This document shows positions 1 through 64,000 of a stretch of DNA of 64,000 bases, in pieces. The DNA lies in NCBI GenBank assembly GCA_040830765.1, contig JBFOMH010000019.1, positions 143,224 to 207,223 on the forward strand, given 5' to 3'. The notes beneath the pieces are model-generated. The model ran no database searches and had not been told where the DNA came from. It worked only from the letters and a program-made list of their open reading frames with translations. The translations under genes were made by a program, and so were the position numbers. The stretch is from Puniceicoccaceae bacterium (GTDB lineage: Bacteria; Verrucomicrobiota; Verrucomicrobiia; Opitutales; Oceanipulchritudinaceae). Each line of letters begins with the position of its first letter. The first letter of the stretch is position 1.

Positions 1-3000
1 TAGGCGAAAACGTTGGCAGACTTGCTGACAGTCGGCCGGAAAGTGTCTGCTTCAAATCTACTTCTGAATCCATCTCTACCAAGAGGTGATAGAGACTATC
101 AGAAGTCTCACCGGTATTCCCAAGGTCGAAGGACCCGCGATTCAAGGTCAACTCCCATGTGGCCAGGTCATCCTCCGGGTTTTGTGGATTCGGATTGGAC
201 AGTTGAACAGAACCACCCACGATATGGACGCCAAGCCCGCCAAAACCAGCACTGAAATCAAGGTTGTCCGTGTCCAGTTTCGTGCCAACGGTAACTTGAC
301 TGGAATCCCTCAAATAGAATTGCGGTGAGAGTGGATCCGATAGTTCGATTGCAAAGTCGAAATCCAGGTCAATGAGGTGCGCAAGGGTGAGATCACCGCC
401 TGCACTTATCAGGCTTGAGGGGATATTTCCCAGCTCCAGCGGAGCCAGATTGAAGTTCAATGGCAGCTCCTGACTTCCCCTGTCTCTAAAGTCAAATTCC
501 ACTTGCAGGAGATTATCCTCGAAGCTAACCGACCGGCTTTGAACAATGAGCCCATCGATGACTCCAGCAAATCCCGCTGTTGCCCGTATGGTTAGATTCG
601 CCGCATCCTGGCCCTGCTCCCAGACGACCTTGTAGCGACCGGGGAGATCCTCATTTGCCTGCAGGATCACCAAGTCCTCCTGACCCTCAAGCACATTCTC
701 CAAAACCAGTTGGCCAACATCGCCATTTCGCTCCAACAGTTCAAATTCGATAAAATAAGAGTTCCCCGCAACGAGAGGTGACTCGCTGTCCACTTCAAAA
801 ACCAGCGTATTGGTGGGATTTCCCGGAGATCCTAGAGCAACCATCTCCCCATCGTCTTCACCACGGACACGAATCGTATTTTCATCAACAATGACGGCTG
901 TGTACGGCTTCCCATCTTCCAATCCGGTGACATCGCTACTCCCGAACGTCCTGACGAAGACGATCCTGTCCCCTTCTGACAGATTATGCGGCGTTCCGAA
1001 TTGGATTGTGTTGTTAGCCGCATCCACGTCAGTCAGTGGATCAAAAGCCAGGGATACCGGGATAAATCCCGGATCCTCAATGCCTTCGACAATCACAAAT
1101 TCAGTGACAGCACCGAAGGTTGATTCCGTGCCTGAGATCGACCAGCCGCCGTTGAGCACCGGTGGACCGGCCAGCAGGCCGGAGGATCGCTCTTTTCCGT
1201 TGGAAATCTCAAACAAGGCATTGGAGAGGACCCGTTCCAGATCCGCGATGGTCAAGATTCCCGAACCTTCAATTTGATCGACGATTCCCCCGAATACATC
1301 CGACAGGTCGACCAAATCGTTGATACTTTTCTCCAGCAATATGATCTCCTGAGAAAATAAGTCATTGTTCTCAAACTCATCGATTGATGCCTGGAGTTCC
1401 CTCAGCCCTTGAACAATTTTCTGAAAAGCTAGTTCCTTTAATTTGTCCAGCTCGGGAAAGTCCTCCAAAGTGACGGAAAGAGAGGCAACATCGAAGATAT
1501 CGGTCCAGCTCACAACGATGAGCGGTTCGGTTCCTTCTTTTACCAAAGCATTGTGCAGGCTCGCGGGTCTCAACCGGACAGGCAGTTCAATATTCAGGGT
1601 GCCGGAGGGTCTGGCTTGGAATTCCGTTTTCCCTGGGTCGGTATAACTGCCTACTTCAAATAACGCTTCCTCAGGTTTGGAAACACTTTCCCAGATTTCC
1701 TTGAAGGTCATTTCTCGAGATGGATCCTTGGCCTTGATCACCAGAGTCGCTCGACCACTGCCCGATCCATCCTGAATGCCAACATTGAAGAACTGCAAAT
1801 CGGCCAAGGCATCCACATCTGATGCCTGAAAACCAAACTCAGCAGATAATTCGAAGTCCCTGATGAAGAAATTCTCCGAAAGGGAATTGGACAGAAGCGG
1901 GGCACCCGTAATCAATCCATCCCTATCGTTGTCGGTTGAGAGGATGCCCAGCCCAAACCCAGGAGCCCCGGCGGTTGAGCCATTGAGGGCGATGATGGAG
2001 AAGGTTCCGGCACCATCCGTTAAATCCTGAAACGCCAAATTGTTGGAGTCACCTGAGAGCCGCACTGAAATATTTTGTCCTACATGCAGCGTGTCTGTTG
2101 CTGGTCCTGAACTCGAGGAAACCTTGAGGTTGTATGCCAATCCAGCGTCACCGCCATACACGCGCAGGAAATAATCACCGGGCTCTAACTCCCTCAAGTC
2201 AATCTCTGGCAAATCCCCGGAGGTTAAGCGAATCGTATCCCCTGCATTGTCGATCAATTCAATAATCAACTCAGACAGCCCGAACCCCTCCAACGTGAGG
2301 CTATCTCCGGACTCCCCGGGCTCCTCAAGCGTGAACCGGAGCCAGTGTTCATCCTGACCGGACCGGAAAACCAGGCCGGTTACCTGATCAAGAAGACTAA
2401 ACCGGTTCAAATCAAGCGCGTCATCTCGACTGTCATACAAGCTCTCAGCTAAAGCGGGAACAAATTGCCCCTCGGCCTGAAGGATTGAATCCACAACCGC
2501 TCCAATAGTCGAAAGCCCATCCAGGCTGATCGGAAAGACGGTACCATCAGCCAATTGGAATCCAATGTCATCAAGCCCCGGAACCACTCCCCTCACCCCG
2601 TTATCATTATTCAGTTCGGATAGCGCTGTCCCGGATGTTAATTCCCGCCGCGACTCAGGAATACGAATTCCGAACACGAAGTTGGTCGCCAGTTCCGGCA
2701 CAATCGACAAAGTCCCATCCGTGCTGATATTGACCAAATCTCCAAGGCCTTCCGAGAAATCAAGTTCAGCGGTTAATGCTTCGAATGTGTGCCTGAAATC
2801 GATCTGGAAGGTCAACACTCCGGACGGCATGTCGAAATCGATCGCACTAAAGGCCGGAAAATCCAATTGGATGCCCTGGAGACTGTCGAAACCCGGTGAG
2901 CCCAGTTCGAGCTTCAGACCGTCGAAGAGTTCCCCGATGTAACGGAAAAAGTCCAACAGTTTATCAAGTGAAACATCGGGTAAAGTTATATCCCCAAGGT

Positions 3001-6000
3001 CCGGTAAACGGAGATTCTTGAGAAACGAAAAGTCAAATCCACTGAAGGCGGGCCCTTGTCCGAATTGGGTAAACCAGCCACTCAACTGGTCAAAGAGCCC
3101 GAGAAGATCAAACCCATCGAACAGGCTGAAGCGTCCAAAATCAAAACTGCCAGATCCCGGGTCTCCAGACTTCAGGCCATCAAACTTGAGCCAATCCGGG
3201 TTGAACTGGAAATCGAAGAATGTGTCCGGATCGATACACAAGTCGGTATCAATGCTCGTTGAAAACCCGTCCAGCTTTCGCTCATATCTTCCGATTTTCA
3301 CGATTAGGGGCAGGTTCAGATCAAACCGGACATCGCCGCAGTCCATGGCAATGAGTTCATCAAGCGATGAAGCAAGCATTTCAGCCACTGTAACCCGCCC
3401 ATCTGAATTGGGATCAACGAAATTGAGCTCTGTTGTCAGAAGGAAATCAAGCGTGGCATTTGCACTGTCGACCTGGGTTTTGAGCTCTCCAAGACGCGCT
3501 GTCACGTCAATGGGATTGCTATCCGGGCCGGCAACCGCCTTGGCAGAAAGACTCAGCAGGGGTAGAACCGCTCCCTCAGAATTCCGGGCACTAGAAATGA
3601 AGAATGCATTGGAAGAAACCTGGTCAACAGAGAGGTCTATGCCGAAGGTAAACGCCAGTTCCAGCGCGAGTTCAAGATCGACCGTTGTGTTGGAATCCAA
3701 GTCCAGTCCGATGTTCAGGTTATCCGCTGCATCTCCCAGATCGAGTGCGGCGTCCAGCGTCCTTTGCCCCTTGAAGACGATATTCTGGAATAGGATTTCA
3801 TTGCCACCTTCAATGACTATTTCAAAGTTCTCATCCAGGATGGGTGACCACTCCATGCCGTCGTGAATGAACGACTGCTTTTTTAATGTTTCGATCAGTC
3901 CAAAGCGGGTCGGTGCAGTGTCACCACTGAAGTAATTCTCAATCGGCTGAATCAGCGATTCATTGAGTTTGTCATAGATCTCGATAAGGTCGTAAATGGA
4001 ACGAGCTGCTTTGGCCAATTCCCCGTTATCCCGCTGTATCAACTCAACCAATCCCGGAATTTCCTTGGCGAGTTCGCTGGCGGCAATGTTCTCCGAGAGC
4101 ACCCGGACCAGGGCCCTGATTCCATCAAGGATGGTGGCCTGCAGTGGTTCGGACAGTATCTCTGTGGCAGGAGGGGGAGTGAAGTTGACCTGATAAATTC
4201 CCCAGTTGGTTTCCCGGTAGTCTATAGTGAGGCCGTCTACAGCCAACGATTCCCCCTCCCAGAATCGCGGGTCGTTGAAGTAAATGCTGTCAATGGAAGC
4301 CGGGCTGGAAGCCGCGGCATCCCTCAGGGCAACAAACTGGGTCCTTATCCAGGATGAGTCGTATTTATCGGCGTCGATAAGCAAATCCGCAATCTCCCAA
4401 AGGATGATCTCACTGTAAAATGCCTCCCGCGCTTGAAGAGCCGTACTCCAATCAAATCCTGCTACGCTTGAATCAGCTGCCCGGTATGAACCGTCAGGAT
4501 TTTCAACGATGACGAAACTGTCACCCCCCGGCGCCGCGACGTAAGTCATCAGCTGCCCGGTGCTATCCGATTCAAGAACGCCAAAGAAAGGGGTGTAGGT
4601 TCGGCTGCCGTCCGTTCTCAGGTTACCATTCTCATCGAAGGGCCGATTGCTGACCTCAATGAACGTAATCGGCGTATTGTCCGGGACCTCGAAGTCTATT
4701 TGCAGGCCCAATTCGTGGAGGTCGTCCTGATCGTCAGGAGGACCATGCAAGGGCGTGTCCCCACCCTGCCTCAAACTGGCACTACGCAACTCCAATGCTG
4801 GCCCGGCTGATTCCAGCAGGTTAGCAGCCCGGTAGATTATTTCCGCAGCCCAGCTGGTTCCCCAATCCTCAAGCTGGGCCTTGCCATCTACACCCATCTG
4901 GACATCGAGCCCTTCCGATTGATTGTCAGAGAATTGTTCCCACCCGGGTGCATTGGGATCGTTAAGCCACGTCGGTAGTAATTCATTACTGGGGGTGTGC
5001 TCAATTGCCGCGGAGGCAGAGGTCTTGAACGAAACCGCCCCGTTAAACAGTCCAATTGCATGAGCAGTCCCGCTTCCAATCTGCCCGGATAAGGGCAACT
5101 CATTTCCTAAAGCACTGGGAAATCCCAGGAAATTGAGCCGCTGCTGAACACGTAAGACATTCAAGGCGTCCGTCCCAGCCTGGACGGCGAATTCCCCTGT
5201 TTGTGAGTAGCCTCTGTCCACTTGAATCGTGAACGACCTCGCTGCTCCTCCGTTGACCCGGTAATTGCCGGTCAGGAATCCTTGAAATCCCCGGCTGGCG
5301 GGATCGACATCGGTAACTCCCAATGCCGTGCTGGGGGCGAAATGGAATATTCCTGTCGATGCGAATGTCCCTGTTGGAGAGTTGTCGTATTCAAATTCTG
5401 TAAACAGGGTCCCGATCAATTCAGTCCCATCGTAAATCGCCCAACTTCCTGATGGATTTTCCTGCGTTGTGTATCCATCAAACCCAACCAGTTCATAGGT
5501 CGAGCCCGACGGCTGTTGCCCGCCAAGGTTGACCTCAATGAAATCTCCTGTCCGTCCTTCAGTGAAAACGCCCCCCCCGAGACTGACATTGTCCAAATGC
5601 ACCTCGGCCTGGATGGCGTTGTCACTACCTCCATCAAGTGAGACCTCGAGCCGATAGATCTCCCTACCTGCAAAGCCTGCCGGCAGATTAAGACGAAGTG
5701 ACCGGAAAGCCCCATCCTGGGCAACAAGAGAAACCGAGGGCAAATGGATCACCGCTGAGTTGTCCGATGGTAAAAGGGCAATATTCAGGACATCATCTTG
5801 CGACGGACTGACTACTTGCAGATCCACGTGTAGTTCCGTGGCAAAACTGGGAATGTAGAACCAATTGTGGACCCTTGTCGCTGAGGCTTCATTGAGAATC
5901 AGGAAGTGGTTATTGCCGCGACCAAGACCAACACGGGCAGTCTCTCCACCACCGTGGTGGGACCAGCCAGGTTCGATATTAGTCGAATTGGAACTTTCCG

Positions 6001-7786
6001 GTTCTAAAGGTGGGGTCTCGAAATCACCATGCACAATCTCCAAAGGATCCCATTGAGGCGCCCAACGGACCTCGGTGAACTGCTGTTCCGACAATCCCAA
6101 AACGCGGAGTGCGTCTATGGCAGCAGAACCATCATCGTTTACCAGTTGGTCGGGGGTATTGTCGTGGTTCTGGGGATTTGAACTTGCGTTGACATCGCCG
6201 AAGAAAACCGGATCCGGCCGCACAGCTGTGCTGGGCATGCTGTCCAATGACTTCGCCGCGGTGCTGTAGGCATATCCAGTATTGGAAAAAATAGGATTCA
6301 AGTCTGTCTCGGGCAAAATCGCACCTTTAGGAATCGTCCCCTGGATAGTCGCCATGTAAAATGTCGACCAGACCCAGCTGTGGTCGCCCCCAAAATCCTT
6401 AGCTAACAATTCGTACTTTTCAGGGAGATAGGGATCGACCAGGAAATTGTAAGCTCCTGGTATTGGCCGGCCTCCTGGTACTGCAATGCCTCCGATACTA
6501 TTCTTGTTCTCAGTCTGGTAGTAGACGTCAGCGAATTCGACATTATCCCAAATGGTTGCCCCATACCCGTTTTGGATCTGGAAAGTATCGTAGAGAATGG
6601 TGTTGAATTGCGGCAGCCCGATCCCAGATTGCCCCTGCAGTTCGTCAATAGGAATCAGGATCTGGTCGAAGTCATGAGGATCCAGGAAGGTAACGTGGTC
6701 GACAGGAACATCATACCGGGCAAGGCGCTCTACAGCTTCACTTGTGACTGCTGAGCCAAAACTGTGCGCGATGAAGTGCAGTGGAATGTCGTTGGCAGCT
6801 CCCAACTCAGGTTCTACCAAGCCCAGCCCGGTTAGCATTGAAAAAAGCGCATCGCCTGCTGCCTCCGTCCATCCGGAGGTGGGCTCATTTGACTCAACCG
6901 CCCAATCAAACAGGAGTATGAGGTGTCCAGATTGACCAACATCCAGAACTGGGTCCGGCAGAATACTTGAATTCACCTCAGTGCTCGATCGATCAAATCC
7001 TCCCGCACCTCCTTGGTCGACTAAATCATAATCCAGCAACCAGGCTTTCTGTACGGTATCACCATTTGAGGTTATTCTCTGGTGTATTGCCTGGGCCAAC
7101 TTCCAGAGCGCATCCCCGGATTCTGCCCCATAGTCTTCCAACGCAGCTCGAAGTGAAGGCGTAAGTTCAGGATAGGATTTTAGGATGAGATCTATCGTTC
7201 CCTCAAATCCCATTTGGAATCCGTGGGTAATCACGGTCACTCCCGTGATGACCAAGTCTTTTAGCTGAGTCGCAATCTCTTGCAACGACAATAAGGATTG
7301 GTCCACTGACTCGAATACTGGTCCATTGTATTGTTCGGATGGAGGCGCCCTCGGCATCAACGATCCAGAAGTTGACTGATCGGACAAATTTGTCCTGTCC
7401 GTTTGATCTCCGGATATACTGCCTGCAGCAGCTGAGTAACTGGTAGTATCCGACAAGAGGAATTGCTCTATGGCTTGCCCATCAAGTAGTTCAAGGCTCA
7501 ATTCGGGACCGATCGCATTACCCTCGCTGGAAGTGTCAAAATTCTCCTTTTCCCCGAGAAGTTCCTGGTCTTCCACGTCGAAAATTCCGTGCTTGTGGGT
7601 ATCAGACCCATTACCTGCAACGGATATTTCACTCTCAATATCTGCGCTAAATACCTCACTTGTTTGTGCCTGATCTTCGAAGATATCCTCTTGATAGCCA
7701 ACAGGCATACCTTCTCCAGAAAGCAAGAGCCGGGGCTCAAGCCTCTCCAAATCGAAACTTCGTCGAGCTGGAATTTTCTTTGGCAC
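1..7786 (-). CDS. Second giant protein (>2,590 aa, 3'-partial): LEPR-XLL motif protein with alpha/beta-hydrolase, PG-binding-like and MepA-like domains
   Basis: Manual translation: GTG at 7786 (in-frame TGA three codons upstream) gives MPKKIPARRSFDLERLEPRLLLSGEGMPVG..., reading to ...GRLSASLPTFSP at the window edge. Frame checked at 7741, 7351, 6769, 6382, 4864, 4717, 3340, 3238 and position 4. The exact start codon is uncertain. Confidence 0.92.
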   Translation of the reverse strand, partial: MPKKIPARRSFDLERLEPRLLLSGEGMPVGYQEDIFEDQAQTSEVFSADIESEISVAGNGSDTHKHGIFDVEDQELLGEKENFDTSSEGNAIGPELSLELLDGQAIEQFLLSDTTSYSAAAGSISGDQTDRTNLSDQSTSGSLMPRAPPSEQYNGPVFESVDQSLLSLQEIATQLKDLVITGVTVITHGFQMGFEGTIDLILKSYPELTPSLRAALEDYGAESGDALWKLAQAIHQRITSNGDTVQKAWLLDYDLVDQGGAGGFDRSSTEVNSSILPDPVLDVGQSGHLILLFDWAVESNEPTSGWTEAAGDALFSMLTGLGLVEPELGAANDIPLHFIAHSFGSAVTSEAVERLARYDVPVDHVTFLDPHDFDQILIPIDELQGQSGIGLPQFNTILYDTFQIQNGYGATIWDNVEFADVYYQTENKNSIGGIAVPGGRPIPGAYNFLVDPYLPEKYELLAKDFGGDHSWVWSTFYMATIQGTIPKGAILPETDLNPIFSNTGYAYSTAAKSLDSMPSTAVRPDPVFFGDVNASSNPQNHDNTPDQLVNDDGSAAIDALRVLGLSEQQFTEVRWAPQWDPLEIVHGDFETPPLEPESSNSTNIEPGWSHHGGGETARVGLGRGNNHFLILNEASATRVHNWFYIPSFATELHVDLQVVSPSQDDVLNIALLPSDNSAVIHLPSVSLVAQDGAFRSLRLNLPAGFAGREIYRLEVSLDGGSDNAIQAEVHLDNVSLGGGVFTEGRTGDFIEVNLGGQQPSGSTYELVGFDGYTTQENPSGSWAIYDGTELIGTLFTEFEYDNSPTGTFASTGIFHFAPSTALGVTDVDPASRGFQGFLTGNYRVNGGAARSFTIQVDRGYSQTGEFAVQAGTDALNVLRVQQRLNFLGFPSALGNELPLSGQIGSGTAHAIGLFNGAVSFKTSASAAIEHTPSNELLPTWLNDPNAPGWEQFSDNQSEGLDVQMGVDGKAQLEDWGTSWAAEIIYRAANLLESAGPALELRSASLRQGGDTPLHGPPDDQDDLHELGLQIDFEVPDNTPITFIEVSNRPFDENGNLRTDGSRTYTPFFGVLESDSTGQLMTYVAAPGGDSFVIVENPDGSYRAADSSVAGFDWSTALQAREAFYSEIILWEIADLLIDADKYDSSWIRTQFVALRDAAASSPASIDSIYFNDPRFWEGESLAVDGLTIDYRETNWGIYQVNFTPPPATEILSEPLQATILDGIRALVRVLSENIAASELAKEIPGLVELIQRDNGELAKAARSIYDLIEIYDKLNESLIQPIENYFSGDTAPTRFGLIETLKKQSFIHDGMEWSPILDENFEIVIEGGNEILFQNIVFKGQRTLDAALDLGDAADNLNIGLDLDSNTTVDLELALELAFTFGIDLSVDQVSSNAFFISSARNSEGAVLPLLSLSAKAVAGPDSNPIDVTARLGELKTQVDSANATLDFLLTTELNFVDPNSDGRVTVAEMLASSLDELIAMDCGDVRFDLNLPLIVKIGRYERKLDGFSTSIDTDLCIDPDTFFDFQFNPDWLKFDGLKSGDPGSGSFDFGRFSLFDGFDLLGLFDQLSGWFTQFGQGPAFSGFDFSFLKNLRLPDLGDITLPDVSLDKLLDFFRYIGELFDGLKLELGSPGFDSLQGIQLDFPAFSAIDFDMPSGVLTFQIDFRHTFEALTAELDFSEGLGDLVNISTDGTLSIVPELATNFVFGIRIPESRRELTSGTALSELNNDNGVRGVVPGLDDIGFQLADGTVFPISLDGLSTIGAVVDSILQAEGQFVPALAESLYDSRDDALDLNRFSLLDQVTGLVFRSGQDEHWLRFTLEEPGESGDSLTLEGFGLSELIIELIDNAGDTIRLTSGDLPEIDLRELEPGDYFLRVYGGDAGLAYNLKVSSSSGPATDTLHVGQNISVRLSGDSNNLAFQDLTDGAGTFSIIALNGSTAGAPGFGLGILSTDNDRDGLITGAPLLSNSLSENFFIRDFELSAEFGFQASDVDALADLQFFNVGIQDGSGSGRATLVIKAKDPSREMTFKEIWESVSKPEEALFEVGSYTDPGKTEFQARPSGTLNIELPVRLRPASLHNALVKEGTEPLIVVSWTDIFDVASLSVTLEDFPELDKLKELAFQKIVQGLRELQASIDEFENNDLFSQEIILLEKSINDLVDLSDVFGGIVDQIEGSGILTIADLERVLSNALFEISNGKERSSGLLAGPPVLNGGWSISGTESTFGAVTEFVIVEGIEDPGFIPVSLAFDPLTDVDAANNTIQFGTPHNLSEGDRIVFVRTFGSSDVTGLEDGKPYTAVIVDENTIRVRGEDDGEMVALGSPGNPTNTLVFEVDSESPLVAGNSYFIEFELLERNGDVGQLVLENVLEGQEDLVILQANEDLPGRYKVVWEQGQDAANLTIRATAGFAGVIDGLIVQSRSVSFEDNLLQVEFDFRDRGSQELPLNFNLAPLELGNIPSSLISAGGDLTLAHLIDLDFDFAIELSDPLSPQFYLRDSSQVTVGTKLDTDNLDFSAGFGGLGVHIVGGSVQLSNPNPQNPEDDLATWELTLNRGSFDLGNTGETSDSLYHLLVEMDSEVDLKQTLSGRLSASLPTFSP
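2125..2440 (-). other. PPC-like (pre-peptidase C-terminal) beta domain in gene 2
   Basis: DSRDDALDL...QDEHWLRFTL...IELIDNAG...LEPGDYFLRVYG...YNLKV pattern. Confidence 0.6.
4181..4870 (-). other. Degenerate MepA-like (M74 / LAS-type) murein endopeptidase domain in gene 2
   Basis: WGT...ASLRQGG..LH...HELGLQID (H-x6-D, 4694-4717) resembles MepA GG..H.SHQ.GLD.D, followed by YFNDP. The expected HxH is replaced by NWGIYQVNF. Confidence 0.5.
5042..5170 (-). other. Peptidoglycan-binding (PG_binding_1-like) motif in gene 2
   Basis: NVLRVQQRLNFLGF...LSGQIGSGTAHAIGLFN matches the V..lQ.rL..lG....G..G..T..Ai..F consensus. Confidence 0.65.
5580..6040 (-). other. Carbohydrate-binding-module-like jelly-roll domain in gene 2
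   Basis: Begins IVHGDFE...PGW and ends VHLDNVSL, the GdFE..GW..DnV pattern of CBM4/9-like folds. Confidence 0.5.
6340..7245 (-). other. Alpha/beta-hydrolase (lipase/esterase-like) domain in gene 2
   Basis: Motifs occur in canonical order: VTVITHGF (oxyanion), LFDW, LHFIAHSFGS (nucleophile elbow, 6755-6769), VTFLDPHD (acid, 6671-6682), GGDHSW (His, 6380-6382). Confidence 0.8.
7718..7741 (-). other. LEPR-XLL (LEPRLLLS) N-terminal motif of gene 2
   Basis: Codons ctt gag ccc cgg ctc ttg ctt tct follow a basic N-terminus (KKIPARR). The motif is typical of large extracellular proteins in Planctomycetes and other bacteria. Confidence 0.9.
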
Positions 7787-7848
7787 TGAAGGTCACGGAG
7801 AGCTACGCTTAGACCCTGTAAGGTCGCGAACAATACTTTCATATCAGC

Positions 7849-7857
7849 TCACCTCCA
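7849..7857 (-). promoter_or_regulatory. Strong Shine-Dalgarno (GGAGGTGA) upstream of ATG 7842, out of frame with gene 2
   Basis: Minus strand reads tGGAGGTGAgctgatATG, with 6 nt between GGAGGTGA and ATG. Confidence 0.5.
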
Positions 7858-7867
7858 GTGGTCAAGA

Positions 7868-7905
7868 ATTTACATTAATACTATCTATTAAAATCGCTAA
7901 TACTT
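7868..7905 (-). promoter_or_regulatory. AT-rich candidate promoter/operator upstream of gene 2
   Basis: Strongly AT-rich patch. Weak sigma70-like TTAGCG-N17-TAATGT on the minus strand overlaps the inverted repeat TTAATA-N5-TATTAA (7875-7891). Confidence 0.3.
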
Positions 7906-7948
7906 AGGGCCTCCGCTTATCCCGACATCGTTGACTTTAGATGAGTCT

Positions 7949-8012
7949 TGGAGGAACCGATACGCCCCTCTTTCGAGGCCTCCAGGCAAGGTGAGCCGGT
8001 TAACCAAACCGG
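7949..8012 (-). other. Stem-loops immediately downstream of the gene 1 stop
   Basis: CCGGTT-N5-AACCGG (7996-8012) and CCTC-GAAA-GAGG (7967-7978), the latter enclosed by TGGAGG/CCTCCA (7979-7984 / 7949-7954). No U-tract. Confidence 0.45.
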
Positions 8013-8013
8013 A

Positions 8014-11000
8014 TCAGTCGAGGGAATCGAATCCGAGGATATCCCCGTCACCCTCAATTGAATTAGAATCCTCCTCAATTACGGGGAAGAGGTTGCTGAA
8101 GCTGCCGAGACGGGAATCCAGTGCGAAAAGTGAGCCGGTGAACGAGGTTACGGAGACGGGCTCCAGGGATGCGGACTGGCGGGCAGCAGCCTCTTCTGCA
8201 GAAATAGTCCTTGCGGCAATCATGAAGGAGGGTTGGGGCTCGGCGATCTGTGGCGTGGCTTCCGACTCAGAACTGATGATCTCGGAATCCGGGGCATAAT
8301 GGGTATAAACGAGGGAAACCGGCGTCGGCCCGTCACCGGTTGGCACCGGCTCAGAGCTGGATTCGTAGGCTGGATCATCGGTTTGGAACATCACCGTATC
8401 ATAGGCAGTATCCCCACTGGCCCCGATAAGGCCGTAACCACCATCAGTAACGACCGCATTAAAGGCATGGCCGAGAACCAGCTGGTCCTTCCACATGACA
8501 CTGACCGTGGAGCCCTTGAAGGTAACCTCAATATCCTGCGCACCGCCCTGCATAATCAAGTCATTCTGGAAGGCCGTATCAATGACAATGCCCTTGCCGG
8601 TGCGGTGTCCAATGACGACCTCACCGGTCTCGGTGTTGACGGTGGCAAACTTGTATTGCTTGGGCCCGTAGTAATCGAAGACGAAACCGCCCTCACCGCC
8701 TGTTGTCAGAGTTCCGGCAAGCCGGATTAATGAGGTGTAATCGACGTCCACGCTCATGAGGTTGATAGCCGCATCGGCAATCGCGGTTCCTGAGTAGCTG
8801 CCGTTAGCCAGCACCCAGGCACCTGTTTCAGGAGCATCGAGCAGGTCGGTGAGGGAGGCATCAAAATTATCTGTCTTGGTCAGGGTCAATTCCGGGGCAA
8901 GACGCTGGACAATGACATTGTCGATGGCCGCCTTGGAATTATCCCCACCCAAGCCAACCATGCCTTCATTAAGGGCGTGGCTGATTCCGTATTGATCGAT
9001 GACGACCGGGAAGGTGTGGGTCAGGGAAGTCCGGTTGTTGACAAGAAGCGTGGCAACCGTGCCATTAACCGAGAGGAGAACATTGTAATTGGTATTGGAC
9101 TTCAGGGAACCGGTGTAAACACCTTGGACATCAACGATCCAACCTTCGGCCGTCCGGTGGCCGATTTCCAGCTTGTTGGTTGAGACATTGATACCGGCAA
9201 ACTTGAAATCGAGCTCGCTCTTGTAGTCAAAGACCACGTAGGCATTACTCTTGTAACCGGAGGTTGGCTTTACCGGGCGAAGGACAGCCCGCATCTCGAA
9301 GTAAGTCGGGACATAATCGTTGACAAGGAAGACACTCAGGGCATCCCCACCGCGGAACTCAGGCTCAACATAGTAACTGCCGCTCTGGACACTCCAGACT
9401 CCACTATCGATGAAGAATCCCTGTGCGCTGTTGCCATCGTTGAAGCCGACTGAGCGGAGGACATCCCGCTTGCCGCCCGGGATATTGCCGGCCTGCGGAT
9501 CATCCGGGGCACCGGTCTGTGCCTTCCACCATGGATCCTGTTGCAGGACAAGGCCCAGCTCGCCGTAGGGCTCACCATTGCGCTCAACCTCGGCGGCGAT
9601 ACCGACATCGCCCGGGCGTGTCGGATCTGCGCCATCGCTTTCGGAGAGGTCATAGAGGTAATCTTGCAGTTGCGGCTGCAAAGTGCGGCTGATAGTGGCA
9701 GCGCCAAACGGTGCGAACGGCACGAGATAGCTGTTGAATTCGCCGACCCAGTCGATGAGGCGGTCGCCACCGGTGTTGCCGATGAGGACATCCCGGCCGG
9801 CTCCGCCGTAGGCGATATCCTGGTAACTATAAGCGGTATCCGGTGTATTGTTGCCAATCGGATCGATGACCTTCTTCACCGGCTGGGCAACACTGTCATG
9901 GTCGTCGTCAGCATTGAGCAAGTCATTACCAAATCCACCATAGACGCGGTCCTGACCGGTACCACCGACAATCCAGTCGTTGCCGAGGTCGCCGAAAATA
10001 CGGTCGTTGCCATCCGTGTAGACAGCGGTAGTCGTTTCATCGATAAATCCATACTGCGGACCTTCGGAGGCATAGAAGTTGCCGAAGAACTGGCCGCCGT
10101 TATCGAGGAAGATCTTCCGCAGCGGGTTGTATTCATCATAGGCGGCGAACTCTTCGGCCTTGCGGGCCTCGAAGCCAAGGACGTTACCGGGGTTGTAGGG
10201 CAGCGTGTAATCGGAACGCATCGGGGTGCCGGTGCGATCGCCATCGGGGTCAGTGTACGAGGTAAATTCCTCGAACCAGCCCATGGTGGTTGGGTCGGAT
10301 TCCAGGCCAGGCATCGCTTCGGTACCGGAAATAAAGTCGTCACCGGCTCCACCGTGGAGGGAGTCGTCACCCAGGCCGCCGAAGATGATGTCATCCGCGT
10401 ATTCCGGATCAAAGTTCGGTGTCTGGTCGTTTTCAATGCCACCACCAATGCTGTCGAGGTAGAACGGTGTCAGGTTGACGGTCTTCTTGAGCTCGTAGCG
10501 CTTGTTGATAACGGCTTGCTGCAGGTTACCCGGAGTGGAAATCGGATCGTCAAACTGGTTGTTTTCGAATCCGGCGATTCCAAAGAGTGGCTCACCGGCG
10601 AGAGTATTGCGACTGGTGTAGATACGACCGTCGTCACCGAGGGCACCGTCATTGCCGGTTCCGCCGGAAATCCAGTCATGGCCCCAGCCACCGATGAGGT
10701 TGTCATCGCCGGCCTCACCATAAAGGACATCGTTGCCGACCATGCCGTAGATTTCATCATCACCGGACTCACCGTGGATTTCGTCCCGGGCACCGTTGTC
10801 ACCGCCATCAGTGTTCTCTTCCGGATTATCCGGAACGAGGTCACGACCGCCAGGCGTGTAGTCAACCAGTTCAACCGCCCGCGGAATGAGCTTCAGGTTG
10901 TTATCGTAGCTAGTAAGGACGTCATCGATTTCGTCATCGCCGGCCCAGTTGGTGTTAAAGGTCTCGTTGTCGTAGTTGAAGCTGAGGTAGCCGAGGAAGG

Positions 11001-53000: not shown

Positions 53001-56000
53001 AGCCACCCTGGACGCCCATGAAGAACAAGCGTTCCTCAACCGGTGTCGTGGTATCCAGACTACTGATTATGGAACCGGTTGCATCCAGCTTGAGGATGCC
53101 ACCAATGAGCGCGGCACTGATCCTGCCGCCAAAGAGATCGCCCTCAAGGGAAACGCCAATGGAGGCGATGTCCTCGATCGGGAATTCTCCACGGAAGAGT
53201 TTTCCGACATTGATCCGGATGCCCTCGATTGATCCGGAGAAGGTCAGGCCACCAGCCCCTTCAAGGCCGGTTACGCTGGCGGAGAGGATGAGGGTAAAGT
53301 CTTCCGGCCGGTTCTGGATGTCGTCCCAGATAAGGCCGATCTCATCGATGCGGATGGGCAGCCAACTTGGCCACTTGAAGCTTTCACCCGTCGCACCACC
53401 AATGCTCAGGAAGACCCCGAAGCCCTGCTTGGTAACAAAGGTTCCATCACCGAGGAAGGCGAAGTTGCGGGCTTCACCGCCAATGACCAACGAACCAATC
53501 TTCACCTCGGCACCGACCGAGCGGAAGCTGACCAGCTCTTCATCCGCGGCGGCCCCGGTATTGATGGCCACATCCTGGGCCGTAAGGGTGAGGAAGGAAC
53601 CGAGGGTTATCCGTACAGTGTCCGCGTTGAAGATAAAGGCCTTGGCCCGGCCGTTTTCAAATTCGACCCCGAGCCGGATGGCTTCCGTGTCCTCGATACC
53701 ATTGGCCAGGCGAGGCTCGGAAGAGGTCCGGTCGGTAATGGAAGCGGAAACCGCCTTGCCCTCGAAGAGGTAGGCCCCGCCGGAGGCAAAGAAGATAGTC
53801 CCGTCGAAGTCGATATCTTCGCCGAATGTGACGGAGAAGTTGCTTACCCCTACCCTCAGGTCGTCAAATTCGATAATGCCCGCGATGCCAATTCGATCGT
53901 TTCCGCCGGAGGTCTGCTGCATCGCATTGGGATCGTCCGGATTGGTATTGCCTGGATCGTAAATCAGCTGTGCCTCGCCAATATCAAATCCGTCCGGATA
54001 AACAACCAGTCCCGGCGTTCCATCACTGGGAGCAATCTGACCGGTAACCCCAAAGGCCGGGAAGGTGACTTGGGCCGCCTGGACGACAAGGATCTGCTGG
54101 CGCAGGCCACCGTTGGCTTCCTGGTCGTAATTGGGATCCCAATTGAAGACAATGCCCGAGGCGGTGACGTTGACAACGTTCGGGATGTTGACCTCAAGAC
54201 CGGCAACCTGGATGCCGAACTTGCCTGGGACAGAGAATGCATCGGCAAGACTTCCACCACCGGTAATCGCACCAAGGGCAGCAAGGACGTCGACATTGAT
54301 GTCAAATGTACCGAGCAGGCCTGTAGCGGTCGCACTGATACCACCACTGGAGGACGAACCGGATGAACCACCTGTTCCTCCGGAACCGCCTGTCCCACCA
54401 GATGTGCTGCTGGAGCTGCCACCGAAACTGAGGCTGGCGCTGTCGACCCCGATACCGACGGTAATGACCAGCTGGCCGTCCTTGAACTGGGTCTTGACCA
54501 GGCTGAGGGACGGACCTTCCAGGGACAACGGCCCGAGGGCAATCGGATTGGTGGCATCGGCCCCATCCTGCTGGGTGGAGGAAATCGTGAAGACCTCGTC
54601 GGAACGGACACTGCTGACCGCACTGGCGCCGGTACCGGTCTGCCAACTACCCGCAACAAACTGGACGTTGACGTCGCCGGCGACGAACATGTCGGAAGCC
54701 TGGACACCCGCTTTCGGCGTGAAGAGGTAACGGTAAGTGTTGGCGGACTGCCGGATGACAGTGACCATGGCCGTTCCATCCGGGTTAACAGCCACATTGG
54801 AAGCTCCCACGCCAGTCAGCCTGATTTCATTACCATCGATACTGGCTGGGTCGATAGCCGCGCCAGTCGGGCTGTAGAAGACCACATCGAGGGAACCATT
54901 GGCATTGATCTTGGACAGACCAACGGTCGCTCCATTGCCCGGGCTAGCCAGCGAGGCATACGGTCCCGGGGACGGTGCCGTGGCGGCCTTGTAGAGGACA
55001 AACCGCTCGGAACCGGAGGCCCCGTTCTTGCCGAGGGAGTCGGACCAGGAGGTGCCGCCGATGAAGGTAACCGTGACATTGACCTTGCCAGCCGTCTGGA
55101 CGGCATCCTTGAAGGCCTGGGTCATGGAAATCGGGTAAAGGAAAGTGCGGTCGTTGGTGGAATCGGTAAATTTCTCAACCGCGGCATTGTCGACTGTCAG
55201 ACCGGTGAGGGAGGTTCCATCCGGTTTCGTGACAGCGACATTAAACTCGGCCGTACTGTCGAGGATGGAAGCATCATTGAGGCCCTGGCGGTTCGGATCA
55301 TTATAGGTTACCGCGAGGTAGCTGAAGTCATCCAGGTTGACAATGGACGTGGAGACCGGACTGGCCAGAACGGCTGTCGGGGTGACAAGTGCCGACGCCG
55401 GGGTGGCAATTGTTGCTCCCTGGCCAAAGATGGAGTAGCCGCTGACACGGATGTTATCGAGGGAGAATCCGTCAATCCCGCCAAAGTGGAATTGCGCCGC
55501 CCCGGAGAGGGCGAAGACTTCATCGAGTCCGCCGGAATCATTGGGAAGCTTGATAATGACATTGGCTTCCGGGACATCGACATTGACCACCCCGTTGGGC
55601 TGCCTGATGAAGGACATGGCCCCGGAAATCGTGAAGACATCCGCCGCACTGAAGGTCAGCAGGTTATCCTCGTCGATTTCACCGGTTTCCGTGAAGCCGG
55701 CAGAGAATTCCTCGATCTTGGCTGTGCTGTTGAACTTGACGCGGATGGCAGCTTGTTCGCCTTCTTCATCAATGAGGCCGTTGCCGTTATCGTCCTCGCC
55801 GTTGTCGTCCACCGGTTCCGAGGCCAGCGGATCTGTCGGGAGAATAATCGACTTGTCGATGGCCTGGCCGGAGTTGTTGAGCTTGACGGTGATCGAGCCA
55901 CTGATGGTCAGACCGTCGAGGCCAACCAGTTCGGCCACACCGTAAGCAATGACAGCATAACGGTCAGGCGTACCCGGGACCGAGGCCCACTTGATGAGAC

Positions 56001-59000
56001 CCAGGGAAGCGTTTGTTACCAGGAGGCCAATGGCGCCGTCCTTGATATTGCCATCAGCGTCGCGGACAGAACCGCCATCCGGAACATAGCCAAGGAAAAT
56101 TTCCACGTTGCGGGCACCGTACAGGGTGAGGTCACCCTCGGTCTGGACGGTGAAATCACCGGTCAACTCGAAGAACGGCGGGATGGAAATGCTGGCATTG
56201 AGAACAGCAAAGCGGACCACGTTGCCTTCGAGGGCGCTGAAGACGATGGAGATGTTGGTATTGCCAACGGAAATGGACTGGTTGACGGCCTTGCCGGTGG
56301 TGTTGATCTCAAGGAGAATGTCGCCGCCGAGGGTCGGCAGGCTGGGCTGCGAGGAGCTTTCGGCGGAAACGGTCACGCGCAGGACACCGGCAACCCCGTC
56401 CGGAGTAAAGACGAACCCGCCCTGGCCATCTTCCAGCCTGACATCAAAGACCGTCAAGGTGACCTCCGAGGCAGCGATGCGGATCATCTTCGGTGCCGGG
56501 ATGGTGTCACTTGGATTTGGATCGGCCAGCGTTATCTGTTCAAAGGTGAAGTAACCGCTGAGGGTAAACGGATCCGAGACCGAGGAGTCATTAAAGGTGA
56601 TGGCGACATTGAGGTAACCGGTAATGCGGAAGAAGGGGCCCTTAGGCAGGATGAGGTCTTCCGTGTTGCCATCGCTGTCCACCACGAAGGTCTCATCGAC
56701 GGCTGCATTGGTGGTGTTGATCTCAACGGCGATGTTTCCGCCAAAGGCAATATTGGCCCCACCGGCATCAAAATCGAGGTTGAAGCCATCATAGCGGATG
56801 CTGGCCGCCATGCCCTGCGGGGTAATCAGGATAAGTCCACTGAGGCCACTGAGGGTAAAGATCGGATCGTCCGGATCGCCGAGGGAGAAGGAGAAATTGG
56901 TGACAGCAATCTTGATGATTTCCGAACCGTTCGGACGGACGGACTTTTCAAAGGAGATAAAGGTACTGACAGAGATGTCGGCGGTATCGTCGAGGTCGAA
57001 ATCAAAGCCGAGGGTAACGTCACCGGAAGCGGCGATGATGCGGGTTTCCATCTTCAGGTAAACAGGATCCGTACCTTCGCCAGTACCAACCTCGTATCCT
57101 GATGCCCCGAAGGAATCGATAAAGTCGATAACCGATGGCGGCGGAACGGTCGTGGTGGAGGTGTTTCCGGTGGCCCGGACCGAAGCGCTGTTGACATCAA
57201 CCTTGAGGTTTTCGACGTCGAGAATGACACCCGGAACACCGACCAGGCTGATATCAGCGGCCTCGGCGTGTAGGGCGAAGTAGCTGGACTGGTCAGCCAC
57301 GGCAACCGGTTTGAACATAGCCATGCCGAAATCAAAGTCCTGGATGCTCAGGCCGATGGCATCGGTCTCGGACGGATCGTCGTTCTCGTCAAAGTTACCG
57401 TCCCCGTTGCTGTCCGGATCGCCGATTCCAACGAATGCGCTGACATCGGCGGCACCAACGGTCAGGACGTTGACGCTCTTGGTCGTTCCGTCGGAAAGGG
57501 TCACGGTCTGCGGCGTGCTGCTCTTGTAGAACTCGAAACTGCCGCTGACGTAGACGAAATTCTCAACAATCAAGGTGACATCGCCATAGGCACGGGTCAG
57601 TTCCTTGTTGAAGTCGAGCAGGATCGACGGTGCAACGGCATCCCCTTCCCCATCAGGATCAATACCGGTCTGGACAATGAGTCCACCATCGGATGCCCAG
57701 TCAGCAGTGGTTTTAAAGTCAACAACCTGCGGCAAGAGCGTTGGCGAGGTGTTGGTTCCCGTCTTGCCACTGTTCATTTCGACACCGAGGACATCGGCCC
57801 GGATAGTGACACCTTCGATACCGACAATTTCCACGCCGCCACTTGCCTTGAGGCCGAAGTAGCTGGAGACATCATCTGCCTGACCGGTCGCGGTCTGGTC
57901 GGCCTTCATCATGGCCATGCCGAACTCGAGGTCACTGAGGACAAAGCCCATTGCCCCGTCTTCTTCCGGGGTGTCATTGGAATCAATGATGCCATCCTCG
58001 TTGGAGTCGACGAAGTACGGTCCGCCGATGCCGACAAAGCCATTCACGTCACTGGCCCCGATGGTCATGACATTAACGACCTTGGTACCGGTCGCGCCTT
58101 CAGGACCAACCGTGTTGACCGTTACCGGATCTCCACTCTTCTCAAAGGCGAACTGGCCACTGACATGGACGAAGTCGGAGAGGCTGAGGGCAACGTAACC
58201 ACTGGCCCGCAGGAGTTGGTCTTCCGTGAAGGAAATCAGCTCGGTATCGTCGACTGTCGGGCCGGTTATGACCTGCAGTCCTGCGGAGCTGCCATAACCT
58301 GTCGGGTCGGCGGCCGCGCTGGCTGCGTAATCGATGGAAGGTGTCAGTCCAGTCAGGCTGAGTGGATCGGTATCCTTGCCCTGGTTGACCTCGATGGTCA
58401 GGCGGCCAGTGAGGGTAATTCCATCGATGCCAATAAGGTCAGCGGTTCCGGTACCCTTGAGAGAGAAGTACTTCTTTGTCGAAGGCGTGGCTTCCGGAGC
58501 GACAACCGGCTTCATTAGTACCAGGGCCATCTTTTCCACACCCAGGGAAACACCAGTTGTGTTCTCTTCCAGTGTCGCGACATCGTCCACCTCGTAATTG
58601 TCGTCGCTGTCCGCGTTGCCGATTCCGGCAAAGACGCGCAGGTTGTACATGCCAATCGAGAGGACGGACATCTTGACCGACTCGGTGGAGCCAATGGTCT
58701 TGGCAAACAGTTCCTGCTTCTGCAGGGCGAGGGTTCCACTGACCCAGACGAAGCCGGCGATATTGAGGAAGAATGAACCGATGAAGAGGAAGTCGACCGT
58801 GTCATCCAGGTCGGCGAGGGCGGTTCCGGCAAGGGCCCAGTCCTTGCTTAAATCATCTTGCTGCTCGGCAAGGTACTTCCAGTCGATCTTTGTCCCGCCG
58901 GCATCCGGCATGTTCATCCACAGCTTCATGTTCATGAGCCGCAGGGAGAAGACGTCCTCATCGAGGCCGGTAAAGGTCATGAGGTCGAGGCCGGCGGCAA

Positions 59001-62000
59001 TGCCGACCCACTTCTGGGCAGTGGCACCGGTACCGACACTCAGTAGAGCGAGGTCGAGGAAGGCCCCGCCGATGAGGAAACCGAGTGCATCCGCGTCCTC
59101 GAGGTCCTGTTCAAAGTCAGCAACATCGGTGTAGCCTTCCTTGTCGATAACTCCGTCCACCCCGGCGAAGAGGTAGACTTCGGAAAGCCGGATGACGAGG
59201 AGGTTGGCACCATCGAGGGACAGACCGTTGTGGTCGGCGGCGCTGTCGAGCATGCGCTGGGAAATGGAGAATTCAGCGGAAAGGATAACGAACCCGGAGA
59301 CATTCAGGTAGAGCTTCCCTTTCACATCAAGGAGAGTCCCCTGCGTCATGTCAGCCAGTGGCGTTCCGGAGATGCCTAAGGGATCGCCGGTGAGGGTGGC
59401 CAGTCCGCTCCAATTGAGACGCGTGCCATCAGCAGCTGCGGCTTGGTTGTAAAGGACACTGAGCTGGAGAATTTCCAGTTCAAAGGTATCCGGCAACCCG
59501 TGCAGGGCCATGGCGTCGACGCTGGCCGCAAGACCCATCCAACTGCGCATGGCGCCGTCGGCCTCGGTCACCATGACCAGTTCGAGGCTGCCACCACTGA
59601 CACTGAATCCGATCGCGTCATCCGTATTGAGGCCAATGACGTTGCCATCATCGTCGAGTTCGAAGTCACCATTGACCCCAACAAAGAGCTGGAGGCCGGA
59701 AAGCGAGATACGCTGACCATTTGCGGTCGTGCTCAGGGTGGTGCCGGCACCGTCGCTCAGTCCGCCGAGGCCATCCAGTTTAAAGTACTCGAACGAGCCG
59801 GCGGCGAGGACGAAGCCAAAAATGTTAATCTTGATGGAGCCGCCGATGCGGAATTCCGGTCCGGTAAAGCCAAGCGGGGTGCCATTGACGAGAATCAGAT
59901 CCGCATCAAAGGTATCATCGCCGCTCTGCAGATCGACTTGCCCCCCTGCTCCATCGGTCCAGTCAAGGGCCGGTTCTGGCGGAGGTGCGGGGCTGGCGAC
60001 CGGTGAAGTACCGCTGGAGGTATTGCTTTCGTAATAGAGTTCAACCGCCTCAATGATGAAATCTGTCGGCATGCCGCTGAGACGGGCCCCGCGGACATTG
60101 ATTTTCATCGCCGTGTAGGTCCGGTCGAAGCCACTCGGGTTCTTCACCGGATCCGGATTCACCTTGATGGTGGCGATGGCCACTTCACCGGAATCCACTT
60201 CGAAGCCAGGACCACCGGGCACACCGATGAAGAGACCGGGCAGGTCATCACCGGAGGTGGCGGAAGATGGCAGAAGAGCATTGTAAATTGCTAAATCATC
60301 CGCATCGACATCGTCGTCGCCATCAATATCGGTTTCATCGGACAGCGCGACTAGTTCCAGACCGATGGTCAGCAACTGGGCATCATCATAATCCGTGGCC
60401 GGGTTGATTATATCGTCCCCGTCGAGTTTCACGTCAACCGGCTGGATGACCATCTCGAAGCCGGCAAAAATCTGTACTGCGCCGTCACCAAGGCTGAGAC
60501 TGAGCAGTCCGGAAATGCCGGTAAAGGCGGTTTCCAGCTCAATCGGGATGACGGCCGGCGGATTTTCTGGAATGGTTGCCTGGACCTCGACCACGACAGC
60601 CTCGGGCGTGAAGTCACCTGTAGTGGCATTACCCGTACCAATATCGGTATTCCAGTCAATAGCCTCGGCCAGGGTTGTCGTTCCGGGCGTGTTGCCCTTG
60701 GCGCTGTTGACCAGGACCTCGATGTTGGCCGCAGTAATATCAAATCCGGGAATGCCTTCGAAGGAGGCTGTCCCGATGCTTGAGGAAATGGCGGTGTAGC
60801 CCCGGGTATCGCCCGGAATGATGGTCTGGTTGGCCGTGATGGAGACAAAGGCGATTTCCCCACCGGTCACGCTGAAGCCGATCGCGTCGGTATCATCGAC
60901 TGAACCATCGGTCTCATCCAAGCTGGCCCCCACTCCGATAAAGACGCTCGTAATATTGAGCCCGATCTTGAGCATGGTGGCATCCTCGAGGTCCTTCTCG
61001 GTTGTCGGCGAGAAGTACCCGTTGCCATTAGCATCGACGTCGACCTCGGTGCGCGACATCGAGAAGCTGGCCAGGCCAACAACAAATCCGAAGAGGTCGA
61101 CGGCCACGGTTCCACCGATTTCCAGGGCTGTGTCCTTTGTCAGCGCGTCTGGGAATTCCGGAAGGATGCCTTCAGTGTCACTGGCACCGGCCCAGTCGAT
61201 CCGGTCAGTCGATTCTTCACCTGCAGCATTGGTTGCCTTGTTGATAAGAACGCTGCCATTGAGGACCTTCAGGGTCAGACCGTCGATACCGACCAGGCTG
61301 GCGCTTTCCAGTCCGATGGCCAGGCCAGTATAGCTGGTCAGGTTGGTCGGTGATGCATCAGCCGGTTTGACCAAGCCAACAGTCACACTGCCACCCTCGA
61401 TGCTGAATCCGATTGCCGAACCAACATCCACGGTATCGTCCGTCGGGGTCAGGGTACCGTTGTCATTCAAGGCCGCACCCACACCGGCAAACAAGCTCAT
61501 CGGAGCACCGGTATCCGGATTTTCACCCAAGGTGATGGCCATCGTCGGGGCGTTAGCCAGGACGCCATCGACATTGTCTAAAGGATTGGTCTCACCCGAG
61601 CCCGGGATGGCCGTGTTGTTGGTATCAACATCCGAGGTTCCCTGGGTCATGGTGAAGTAGGCGGTACCCACAACGAAGCCGAAGATATCGACGGAGGCAC
61701 TACCCTGGATACTCAGGTCAATACCACTGGTCAGTTGGTCGCTGAAGTCGGGCAGCAGGGTACCGGTTGCAGTGGCCCAGTTAATCTTGGGGAGTACGGC
61801 GGCGGTGCCATCGGTTGCCTTGTTGACCAGGACCGTTCCGCTGGCAATGAGGGTCAGCCCGTCGATACCGACAAGGGTTGCTCCTTCAAGTCCGATTTCC
61901 AGACCGGTATAGCTGATGAGAGGATTATCAGCCGGCTTGACAATGGCCATGTCAACGGTACCGCCCACAATGCTGAATCCGAGAGCACCTTCGGTATCGA

Positions 62001-64000: not shown

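Follow-up and report, generated by a model that had tools for sequence, protein, structure and literature searches.

It is an open question by which route 1-2 MDa proteins leave bacteria when they lack both a Sec signal and a type I ATP-binding cassette (ABC) partner. RTX adhesins such as LapA and MpIBP have a long repeat arm, calcium-binding RTX repeats and an acidic composition. A secondary SecA_DEAD module was described by Kamneva, Poudel and Ward in 2015 (PMC4452313), and consists of a SecA_DEAD protein without wing/scaffold, M50-HlyD, GAF-HlyD, HlyD and OEP, with no ABC transporter. Giant proteins with an N-terminal LEPRxLL motif, Cag_663 and Cag_665 of Chlorobium chlorochromatii, were shown to be transcribed, made and transferred (10.64898/2026.03.19.712371). 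Both have been published, such a cassette in 2015 and LEPR giants in a 2026 preprint, and we found no paper linking the two in the literature searched, with subscription papers and supplements outside its scope. In this study, we analyzed a stretch of 64,000 nucleotides from a Puniceicoccaceae bacterium (GCA_040830765.1, 96.9% complete, here G000), hereafter the window, which spans C19:143224-207223 up to the contig end and holds parts of two giant genes, A and B. With a probability of about 0.6, we read the window as the downstream part of a LEPR-XLL surface-giant array, that is, a series of independent modular attachment appendages served by one exporter. The window adds the anatomy of the cargo and evidence against a joint A-B apparatus.

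Two other groups of giants are close to this locus. In planctomycetes, the leader RRLxxExLExRxLLA (PF07595) is found on very long proteins and was proposed as an export signal, and 20 of 52 such proteins were detected by proteomics in Tuwongella (PMC8567305). This leader is similar to the LEPR leader; the proteins there reach 10,566 residues, and the accessible text of that paper assigns no export machine to them. For Omnitrophota giants (10.1101/2023.11.21.568195), a wingless SecA-like domain was proposed to export the giant, which also carries attachment and hydrolase domains. There, the giant itself contains the SecA domain in cis, along with many transmembrane helices, whereas SecA is a separate gene in G000, and we found no SecA match within A or B and no clear transmembrane helix (hydropathy over 19 residues peaks at 1.96 for A and 1.58 for B). 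LEPR is unmentioned in the accessible part of the Omnitrophota preprint.

Two genes on the minus strand occupy 99.6% of the window, in agreement with the original prediction that two co-oriented genes fill more than 99% of it. Gene A is represented by its 3' 18,661 codons (8014..63999, open at the window end, with no start in the window) and gene B by its first 2,595 codons (2..7786, GTG start at 7786, open at the window start). The gap between the two open reading frames (ORFs) is 227 nt long (7787..8013). Both genes run off the window, as had been noted, but B is complete in the contig (C19:124574-151009) and encodes 8,811 residues. A tRNA-Ser(TGA) lies after the end of B on the opposite strand.

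The search for secretion genes by contig extension, which had been proposed earlier, revealed a cassette on contig C7 (24193-32759) with Pfam matches for OEP/TolC, HlyD, GAF-HlyD, M50-HlyD and a short SecA. As far as the accessible text of PMC4452313 describes the module, the gene set is the same. The cassette SecA (685 residues) shows SecA_DEAD, P-loop and PP_bind only, without SecA_SW (wing/scaffold), and a second SecA frame of canonical size (1,034 codons) is located on C18. The motifs of the cassette are intact, namely HEFGH and NANPLLRFDG (NxxPxxxxDG) in the M50 protein and Walker A/DEAD in SecA, and there is no ABC transporter in the gene run. The closest named homologues of the M50 protein belong to Puniceicoccaceae/Opitutales (74-96% identity).

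We found that the repeat of A at the window end (165 residues) occurs at only two sites in the genome, where C19 ends and where C7 starts. The assembly break between these contigs falls inside the 165-200-residue repeat region of A. The start of C7 holds a LEPR-led frame of 2,649 codons running off the contig, and the repeat register between the two pieces gives a smallest gap of 86 residues. In a genome of the same genus (G007), one ORF aligns with the C7 part over 2,673 columns (59% identity) and then matches residues 9-865 of the window part of A at 72-74% identity, the spacing again being 86 residues. In another (G004), a giant of 14,125 residues is collinear with the C7 and C19 parts of A and lacks only the big repeat block. 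The C7 frame is probably the start of gene A, which would comprise about 21,390 residues (about 2.2 MDa; 2,642 + 86 + 18,661), or more if the gap hides further repeat copies. The earlier figure of more than 18.6 thousand residues holds for the 18,661 residues in the window, and A is in fact larger.

The rebuilt locus has the order TolC, HlyD, GAF-HlyD, M50-HlyD, wingless SecA, giant 1, A, B and tRNA-Ser. Giant 1 is a LEPR-led frame of 5,302 codons (about 5,270 residues) upstream of A on C7. The order is supported by another genome, G009, where the cassette is succeeded by one giant of 7,142 codons and then by tRNA-Ser(TGA). Three LEPR giants (about 5,270, about 21,390 and 8,811 residues, about 35,500 together) follow the G000 cassette, whereas the main text of PMC4452313, in its accessible part, names no substrate, with no mention of a giant, adhesin, RTX or large protein. 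Genomes of the same genus carry one or three cargo genes behind the cassette. The closing tRNA-Ser(TGA) lies at L001:861-950 in G000 and at L083:1031-1120 in G009. Gene B, which is low in G+C, adjoins the tRNA as an insertion at a tRNA would, and short direct repeats are present between the B stop codon and the tRNA.

The leader (NF012209) is 35 residues long with seven invariant positions. It was found on six genes of G000, and the whole genome has one cassette; together with one 5'-open giant, the six LEPR genes make up 5.4% of the genome. With one cassette, six leader genes and the open giant, G000 offers a compact test case. The leader of A, on its C7 part, scored 27.9-32.6 bits and that of B (7718..7750) 19.2-24.3 bits against a cut-off of 17, and both are followed by an acidic linker. 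Across the family the N-terminal leader is conserved, and the C-termini differ.

To relate leader and cassette, we compared 41 genomes, whose kin are not independent. The short SecA was present in 15 genomes and LEPR matches in 16, with both in 13. All 12 genomes with a LEPR match at E<=1e-4 have the short SecA, and the three LEPR-only genomes show weak matches, with E values between 1e-3 and 8e-3, in frames that are 138-636 codons long. In eight genomes (G000, G004, G007, G008, G009, G012, G013, G023) a LEPR gene lies within 0.4 kb behind SecA, and in G022 it directly precedes the cassette. We also examined 46 loci with M50 homologues from Verrucomicrobiota, Acidobacteriota, Gammaproteobacteria and others, some of which stem from genomes of the 41-genome tally. 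A long or open LEPR ORF was found in 12 of them. Among the loci of at least 20 kb, 7 of 17 have a long LEPR ORF, and two more loci have the motif in shorter frames. For comparison, 6 of 164 tiles of the LEPR-rich G000 genome contained a LEPR ORF, all six being the known giants. The M50 protein matched a daptide leader peptidase model (E 8e-50, below cut-off), a likeness that would be consistent with a role in leader recognition. In three loci (L033, L034, L035), the LEPR motif heads frames of fewer than 500 codons behind the short SecA, twice in L034; these could be small tagged cargo or leader-only peptides.

The original prediction implied export of RTX proteins by a type I route. This is probably wrong. 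No canonical type I ABC system was found in the genome. PF03412 (C39-ABC) gave no match in G000, and TIGR01842, TIGR01843 and TIGR03375 gave none above cut-off; in all, no C39-ABC, PrtD, LssB or type I HlyD scored above cut-off in this genome. A and B could still be ordinary RTX adhesins of the LapA kind that leave the cell C-terminus first through a type I-like ABC transporter encoded elsewhere, with the cassette a mere neighbour. They resemble LapA and MpIBP in their long repeat arm, RTX repeats and acidic, nearly cysteine-free chains, and they share a common C-terminal tail. A MacAB-TolC-like cluster, assigned by eye, is located on C9, and in an assembly that is 96.9% complete the transporter could be missing. 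However, A and B differ from LapA and MpIBP in that no cognate type I ABC transporter was found in G000, the signal seems to be N-terminal, and the RTX blocks of B lie mid-protein, their dense part stopping about 3,700 residues before the C-terminus. Moreover, it is the leader that is conserved family-wide and co-occurs with the cassette, and not the C-termini. We consider the LapA-kind explanation improbable.

We next consider whether A and B form a pair. The A-B junction is no misassembly, a point raised in the original prediction: positions 2000-14000 are spanned without difference by one contig of the public run X1 (possibly the source run), and the gap is covered without any difference by contigs of runs X3 and X5 from two other studies, a single X5 contig bridging 7634-8210 with no differing letter. 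The reported lack of an intrinsic terminator was reproduced (0 in 7600-8300), but it says little, because shuffled sequences average only 0.7. Likewise, a sigma-70 scan of the gap region gave 0 sites where shuffles give only 0.6 and is uninformative, and folding of the gap was no stronger than that of shuffles (z -0.42). The gap contains the window's most AT-rich 40-mer (7867-7906, 7 G+C in 40), and 40-mers that poor in G+C occupy 0.016% of genome positions. This 40-mer is directly followed by TTGACC at 7860-7865. An AT-rich tract with TTGAC is found upstream of four of the six LEPR genes, in three of them 113-115 nt from the motif match. The tract and TTGACC in the gap are probably B's own promoter, judged by these sequence features.

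At the 3' end of A, a tail of 168 nt (7998..8165; the last 50 codons, the stop and 16 nt behind it) is 72% identical to the end of B, and the 56-residue C-terminal tail was found in A and B only. A shared signal or anchor would fit this, and so would a past duplication or recombination of the 3' end. Contigs of the RNA run X2 cover parts of the 5' region of B without differences, with DNA carry-over uncontrolled. Their cover is almost nil over A 8015-14000 while the 5' end of B is covered; X2 comes from an oligo-dT library whose contigs cannot rank expression, and the search that picked the runs used a different part of A (26% of whose words are in X2), so this difference was not used as evidence.

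The original prediction proposed that A and B are co-expressed as a two-part contact apparatus. In this scenario, both genes would be co-transcribed, A serving as a stiff attachment scaffold and B as an enzyme carrier attacking the lipids and peptidoglycan of another cell. Co-orientation, the 227-nt gap, the lack of a terminator and the exclusive tail speak for it, as do the conserved lipase triad and the peptidoglycan-binding-like features of B and the bridging X5 contig, which may be RNA. But the paralogue of B stands alone. It was assembled from C8 and C33 (126-nt exact overlap), is full-length with 9,748 codons, and has no giant upstream; B is 55-61% identical to it over the first 5,300 residues and 38% later. 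None of 36 other family genomes searched showed the lipase or the peptidoglycan module of B. The synteny check in relatives went against linkage as well, with other, unrelated genes downstream of the same-genus A-like giants (G004, G007-type loci). The gap has the promoter-like tract, and B and A differ in base composition (G+C 51% and third-position G+C, GC3, 0.53 in B; 57.5% and 0.68 in A; the C8 part of the paralogue has 57% and 0.67). The peptidase motif appears incomplete in both copies of B. Finally, A has an enzyme-like, matrixin-like head of its own. We therefore regard the co-expressed apparatus as unlikely, and the best reading is that A and B are separate modular surface appendages sharing one exporter and no two-part weapon. 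As a further candidate, the tandem pair of G023 (21,533 and 7,280 residues) was tested as an orthologous A-B pair and rejected: the two are a mosaic and a protein related to another giant, and the second is unrelated to B.

Beyond the genes and their order, the leader, the motifs and domains, the co-occurrence of cassette and leader, and one domain model, we infer the following mechanism for an array of independent appendages. Each giant would be transcribed from its own AT-rich promoter. The M50 membrane protease would read, and perhaps cut, the N-terminal LEPR leader, and the short SecA ATPase would take the role of an ABC pump, pushing the unfolded, acidic, nearly cysteine-free chain, presumably with its N-terminus leading, through the adaptor/TolC duct. 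Outside the cell, calcium would fold the RTX blocks and the repeats would form a long arm. The appendages may then attach, and their hydrolase heads (protease-like in A, lipase-like in B) may condition the surface, mucus or matrix that is held. A single cassette would handle every LEPR giant of the genome, both in cis and in trans. That A and B lie side by side would reflect the accumulation of cargo genes behind the cassette and not a joint apparatus.

A hydrolase-like head is present on five of the six G000 LEPR genes (two lipase-like, one matrixin-like, one LCAT-like, and one with weak reprolysin and Zn-phospholipase C matches). Several observations weigh against the array of appendages with a common leader-reading exporter. 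By Pfam, which would miss the hydrolase family of B, a hydrolase head was found on only 4 of 17 LEPR N-termini of relatives, all four from the same genus, and it is therefore no family rule. Cassette and LEPR gene are non-adjacent in G014, G017, G021 and G038, and the short SecA occurs without a LEPR match in G001 (68% complete) and G020. No long LEPR ORF was found in 34 of the 46 M50 loci within the flank covered, many of these being short contigs. A and B have RTX repeats and a common C-terminal tail, like C-terminally signalled type I substrates. The Chlorobium giants were assigned to SapC/TolC/HlyD export, C-terminus first (10.64898/2026.03.19.712371, accessible part). Lastly, the X5 contig that bridges the A-B gap may come from RNA, although the RNA status of this run is a guess.

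The cargo itself shows how such giants evolve: heads were swapped, the 60-copy repeat block was expanded in one lineage, and a low-GC gene was added beside the tRNA. In A, the head on C7 has the matrixin-like motif HEVGHLLGLGH (PF00413, 24.2 bits at a cut-off of 24), which fits HExxHxxGxxH and is kept in G004 and G007, and a weak match to a Vps10-like propeller (E 3e-4) lies behind it. In the window, A begins with 13 copies of a beta-rich repeat of 165-200 residues (56911..63999; 4 more on C7, 17 in all). It continues with a long-stranded antiparallel meander sheet (45790..56910), from which 10 Ig-like domains of about 130 residues each are looped out (48589-55377; from repeats and the structure model), and a first block of RTX nonapeptides (44320..45552, PF00353), which we take, from family knowledge, to be a calcium-binding beta-roll. 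Then follow 60 copies of a tail-sheath-like repeat (15400..40710, period about 102 residues in the dense part), a second RTX region (9460..15132, PF00353) and C-terminal beta-rich domains (8350..9462). All these features are on the minus strand. A is no pure scaffold, with its matrixin-like head, sheet with Ig inserts, 60 sheath-like repeats and RTX blocks. The window part of A contains zero cysteine and 14.6% Asp+Glu.

The domain types named in the original prediction fared unevenly. RTX repeats were confirmed by PF00353 above cut-off in both A and B, and Ig-like domains by the structure model of the A inserts. The label LamG-rich found no backing: the C-terminal domains of A had no LamG match in Pfam or PDB, nor any other family or structure match. 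The view of RTX-rich giants as surface or secreted proteins was borne out in that, by their sequence features, A and B are both probably exported, calcium-binding surface giants. The profile of the 60-copy repeat matched phage tail-sheath proteins weakly (E 3e-4 to 6e-3), with designed proteins scoring equal or better, and the repeat occurs in only two of the 36 family genomes (4 copies in one, 1 in the other). A LysM array in A was rejected, as the Pfam match covers 17 of 43 model positions inside the sheath-like repeat and 6 of 41 repeats match weakly. The last approximately 1,250 residues of A form a module found in five of the five same-genus genomes searched (best matches 51-65% identical). 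It is common to many LEPR giants of the genus and to two giants of G000, and is absent from B.

To characterize the sheet, we modelled residues 2434-3333 of A with AlphaFold (900 residues, 92 sequences; predicted local distance difference test score, pLDDT, 87.8; predicted template modelling score, pTM, 0.72), which covers 54001-56700 only. The best structural matches of the sheet are beta-barrels, yet at a root-mean-square deviation (rmsd) of 17-20 A, so the sheet is no closed barrel. Two inserts match Ig domains of SbsC, LdtMt2 and CopC (Z 7.6-8.4, rmsd about 3), and Foldseek gave only Ig-level matches to the model (template modelling score 0.12 or less). The sheet family is wide, with 634 representatives at E<=0.001, and has no Pfam name. 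Among the 27 sheet strands (mean 11.7 residues), one side has a mean Kyte-Doolittle hydropathy (KD) of 1.9 and the other of -0.3.

This raises the question of a feeding conduit, in which a hydrolase head would free lipids or other hydrophobics and the open beta-sheet would carry them along a greasy groove, like bridge-like lipid-transfer proteins. The single modelled meander sheet, hydrophobic on one side, and the lipid-active heads on four of the six G000 LEPR genes (two lipase-like, one LCAT-like, one weak Zn-phospholipase C) would suit this. However, the Ig strands of A alternate just as strongly (KD 2.1 vs -0.5), so that strand alternation alone is no proof of an open greasy face. The hydrophobic face could also be buried by a dimer, as proposed for Cag_663 (10.64898/2026.03.19.712371, accessible part). 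In addition, the head of A is protease-like, and behind the sheet there are RTX blocks and repeats and no membrane anchor. No bridge-like lipid-transfer protein was among the 50 matches listed in each of two VIA searches with the A model, which does not exclude a likeness, and no relevant paper on a lipid-bridge reading of such giants was found in the literature searched. We therefore find the conduit doubtful. Its boldest form is equally speculative: an ABC-less SecA/TolC machine would export A N-terminus first, placing the hydrolase head at the far tip, and the sheet of about 7,000 residues would be an extracellular hydrophobic groove along which lipids or other greasy molecules would pass from the surface of a host or partner to the bacterium. 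By the same long shot, such a giant would be what bridge-like lipid-transfer proteins are elsewhere, but secreted by a bacterium and fitted with a plug-in lipase.

Cag_663 and Cag_665 resemble A and B in their N-terminal LEPRxLL motif, tandem arrangement (the Chlorobium giants exceed 20,000 residues) and calcium-binding distal part, and A in the prediction of an extended beta-sheet that has a hydrophobic cleft and from which domains loop out. They differ in several features: the Chlorobium giants have a beta-helix of 12,000-14,000 residues, in place of which there are RTX blocks, sheath-like repeats, propellers and hydrolase heads in A and B; the inserts model as Ig-like in A and as HK97 in Chlorobium; and SapC stands beside the Chlorobium giants, while SapC (PF07277) had no match in G000. 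The accessible part of the preprint (10.64898/2026.03.19.712371) does not mention M50 and does not tie the giants to an M50/short-SecA cassette. That A and B are contact-dependent symbiosis or delivery proteins handed to a partner cell is unlikely, since the shared leader, tandem layout and similar predicted N-terminal sheet with looped-out domains (same preprint) and the occurrence of the DNA in a mollusc metagenome study and two others are set against the lack of a recognised long beta-helix spike in A or B, of SapC and of a known partner.

For B, the original prediction named lipase and peptidoglycan-directed modules. The lipase part stood: an alpha/beta-hydrolase (lipase-like) head with an HGF motif was found by family alignment at 6200..7252 (minus strand), and its triad looks intact. 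This head family has 83 matches in the protein search. In an alignment of 52 rows (query, paralogue and 50 of the 83 matches), with residue roles assigned by motif, Ser342 is conserved in 49, Asp369 in 52 and His469 in 39 (10 gaps), and the oxyanion HG in 51. The head searched alone gave no Pfam or PDB match, and the sole PDB match of its profile was pancreatic lipase-related protein 2 (E 0.33), over the nucleophile elbow.

The peptidoglycan part stood only for a binding-like module. A peptidoglycan-binding-like helix bundle and an M15/M74-like peptidase fold lie at 4187..5158 (minus strand; sub-threshold Pfam and Atlas). Residues 870-1215 have a PG_binding_1 match below threshold (E 0.1) and Atlas neighbours with PG_binding_1 and M15/M74 peptidases (0.90-0.91). 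The peptidase-like domain has the His-x6-Asp motif (HELGLQID), but the last-strand region is without His in either copy (NWGIYQV, NWGIFQV), the expected position of the His-x-His motif being taken from MepA and placed by eye. The domain is probably without its third zinc histidine and catalytically degenerate, so that it would be a binding module and no muralytic enzyme. Its AlphaFold model, from 2 sequences, had a pLDDT of 37 and was not used for fold search, and two protein searches, as well as searches of genome contigs, plasmids, PDB and the 36 family genomes, found no relatives of the module. Past the window, B has RTX, FG-GAP, ELWxxDGT, LRR, Golvesin-C, SdrD-B and PKD domains.

Other giants were observed in G000. 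A stand-alone LEPR giant of 15,026 codons (C5:130168-175248) has metzincin-type motifs at both ends, a weak Zn-phospholipase C match and the C-terminal module of A. On C6, a 6,958-codon giant has a C-terminal Dockerin_1 match above cut-off. A seventh giant frame (C6:3-13742, 5'-open, 4,579 codons) is related to it, and no matching 3'-open LEPR piece for its start remains in the assembly. Directly behind two C6 giants are genes of 258-266 codons (C6:13721-14497 and C6:68655-69455; L005, L079) with a signal-peptide-like start, cohesin-like by eye and without Pfam or NCBIfam match; cohesin-dockerin anchoring of LEPR giants is possible. In G013, giants flank the cassette on both sides (C63:3-27044 and 35884 onward), and the piece upstream of it (9,014 codons) shows 33-37% identity with several parts of A.

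A frame of 7,980 codons on C17 (166769-190711), filamentous-haemagglutinin-like by eye, is without the LEPR leader and has none of the checked cassettes beside it. Over long stretches it shares 25% identity with the G023 giant of 7,280 codons, which is LEPR-led. This kinship suggests that one body type may use two export routes. Large non-LEPR frames with more cysteine and signal-peptide-like starts are located at C5:393887-409978 (5,363 codons), C5:385757-392917 (2,386) and C17:233223-241421 (2,732). DNA of the locus was found in a study labelled mollusc metagenome (X1, X2) and in two more studies (X3, X5), and the bacterium may live in association with a host. About 11-26 kb downstream of B (C19:98030-113574), we observed by eye a TonB-dependent-receptor-like gene and several sulfatase-like genes, a neighbourhood typical of a polysaccharide-degrading verrucomicrobium.

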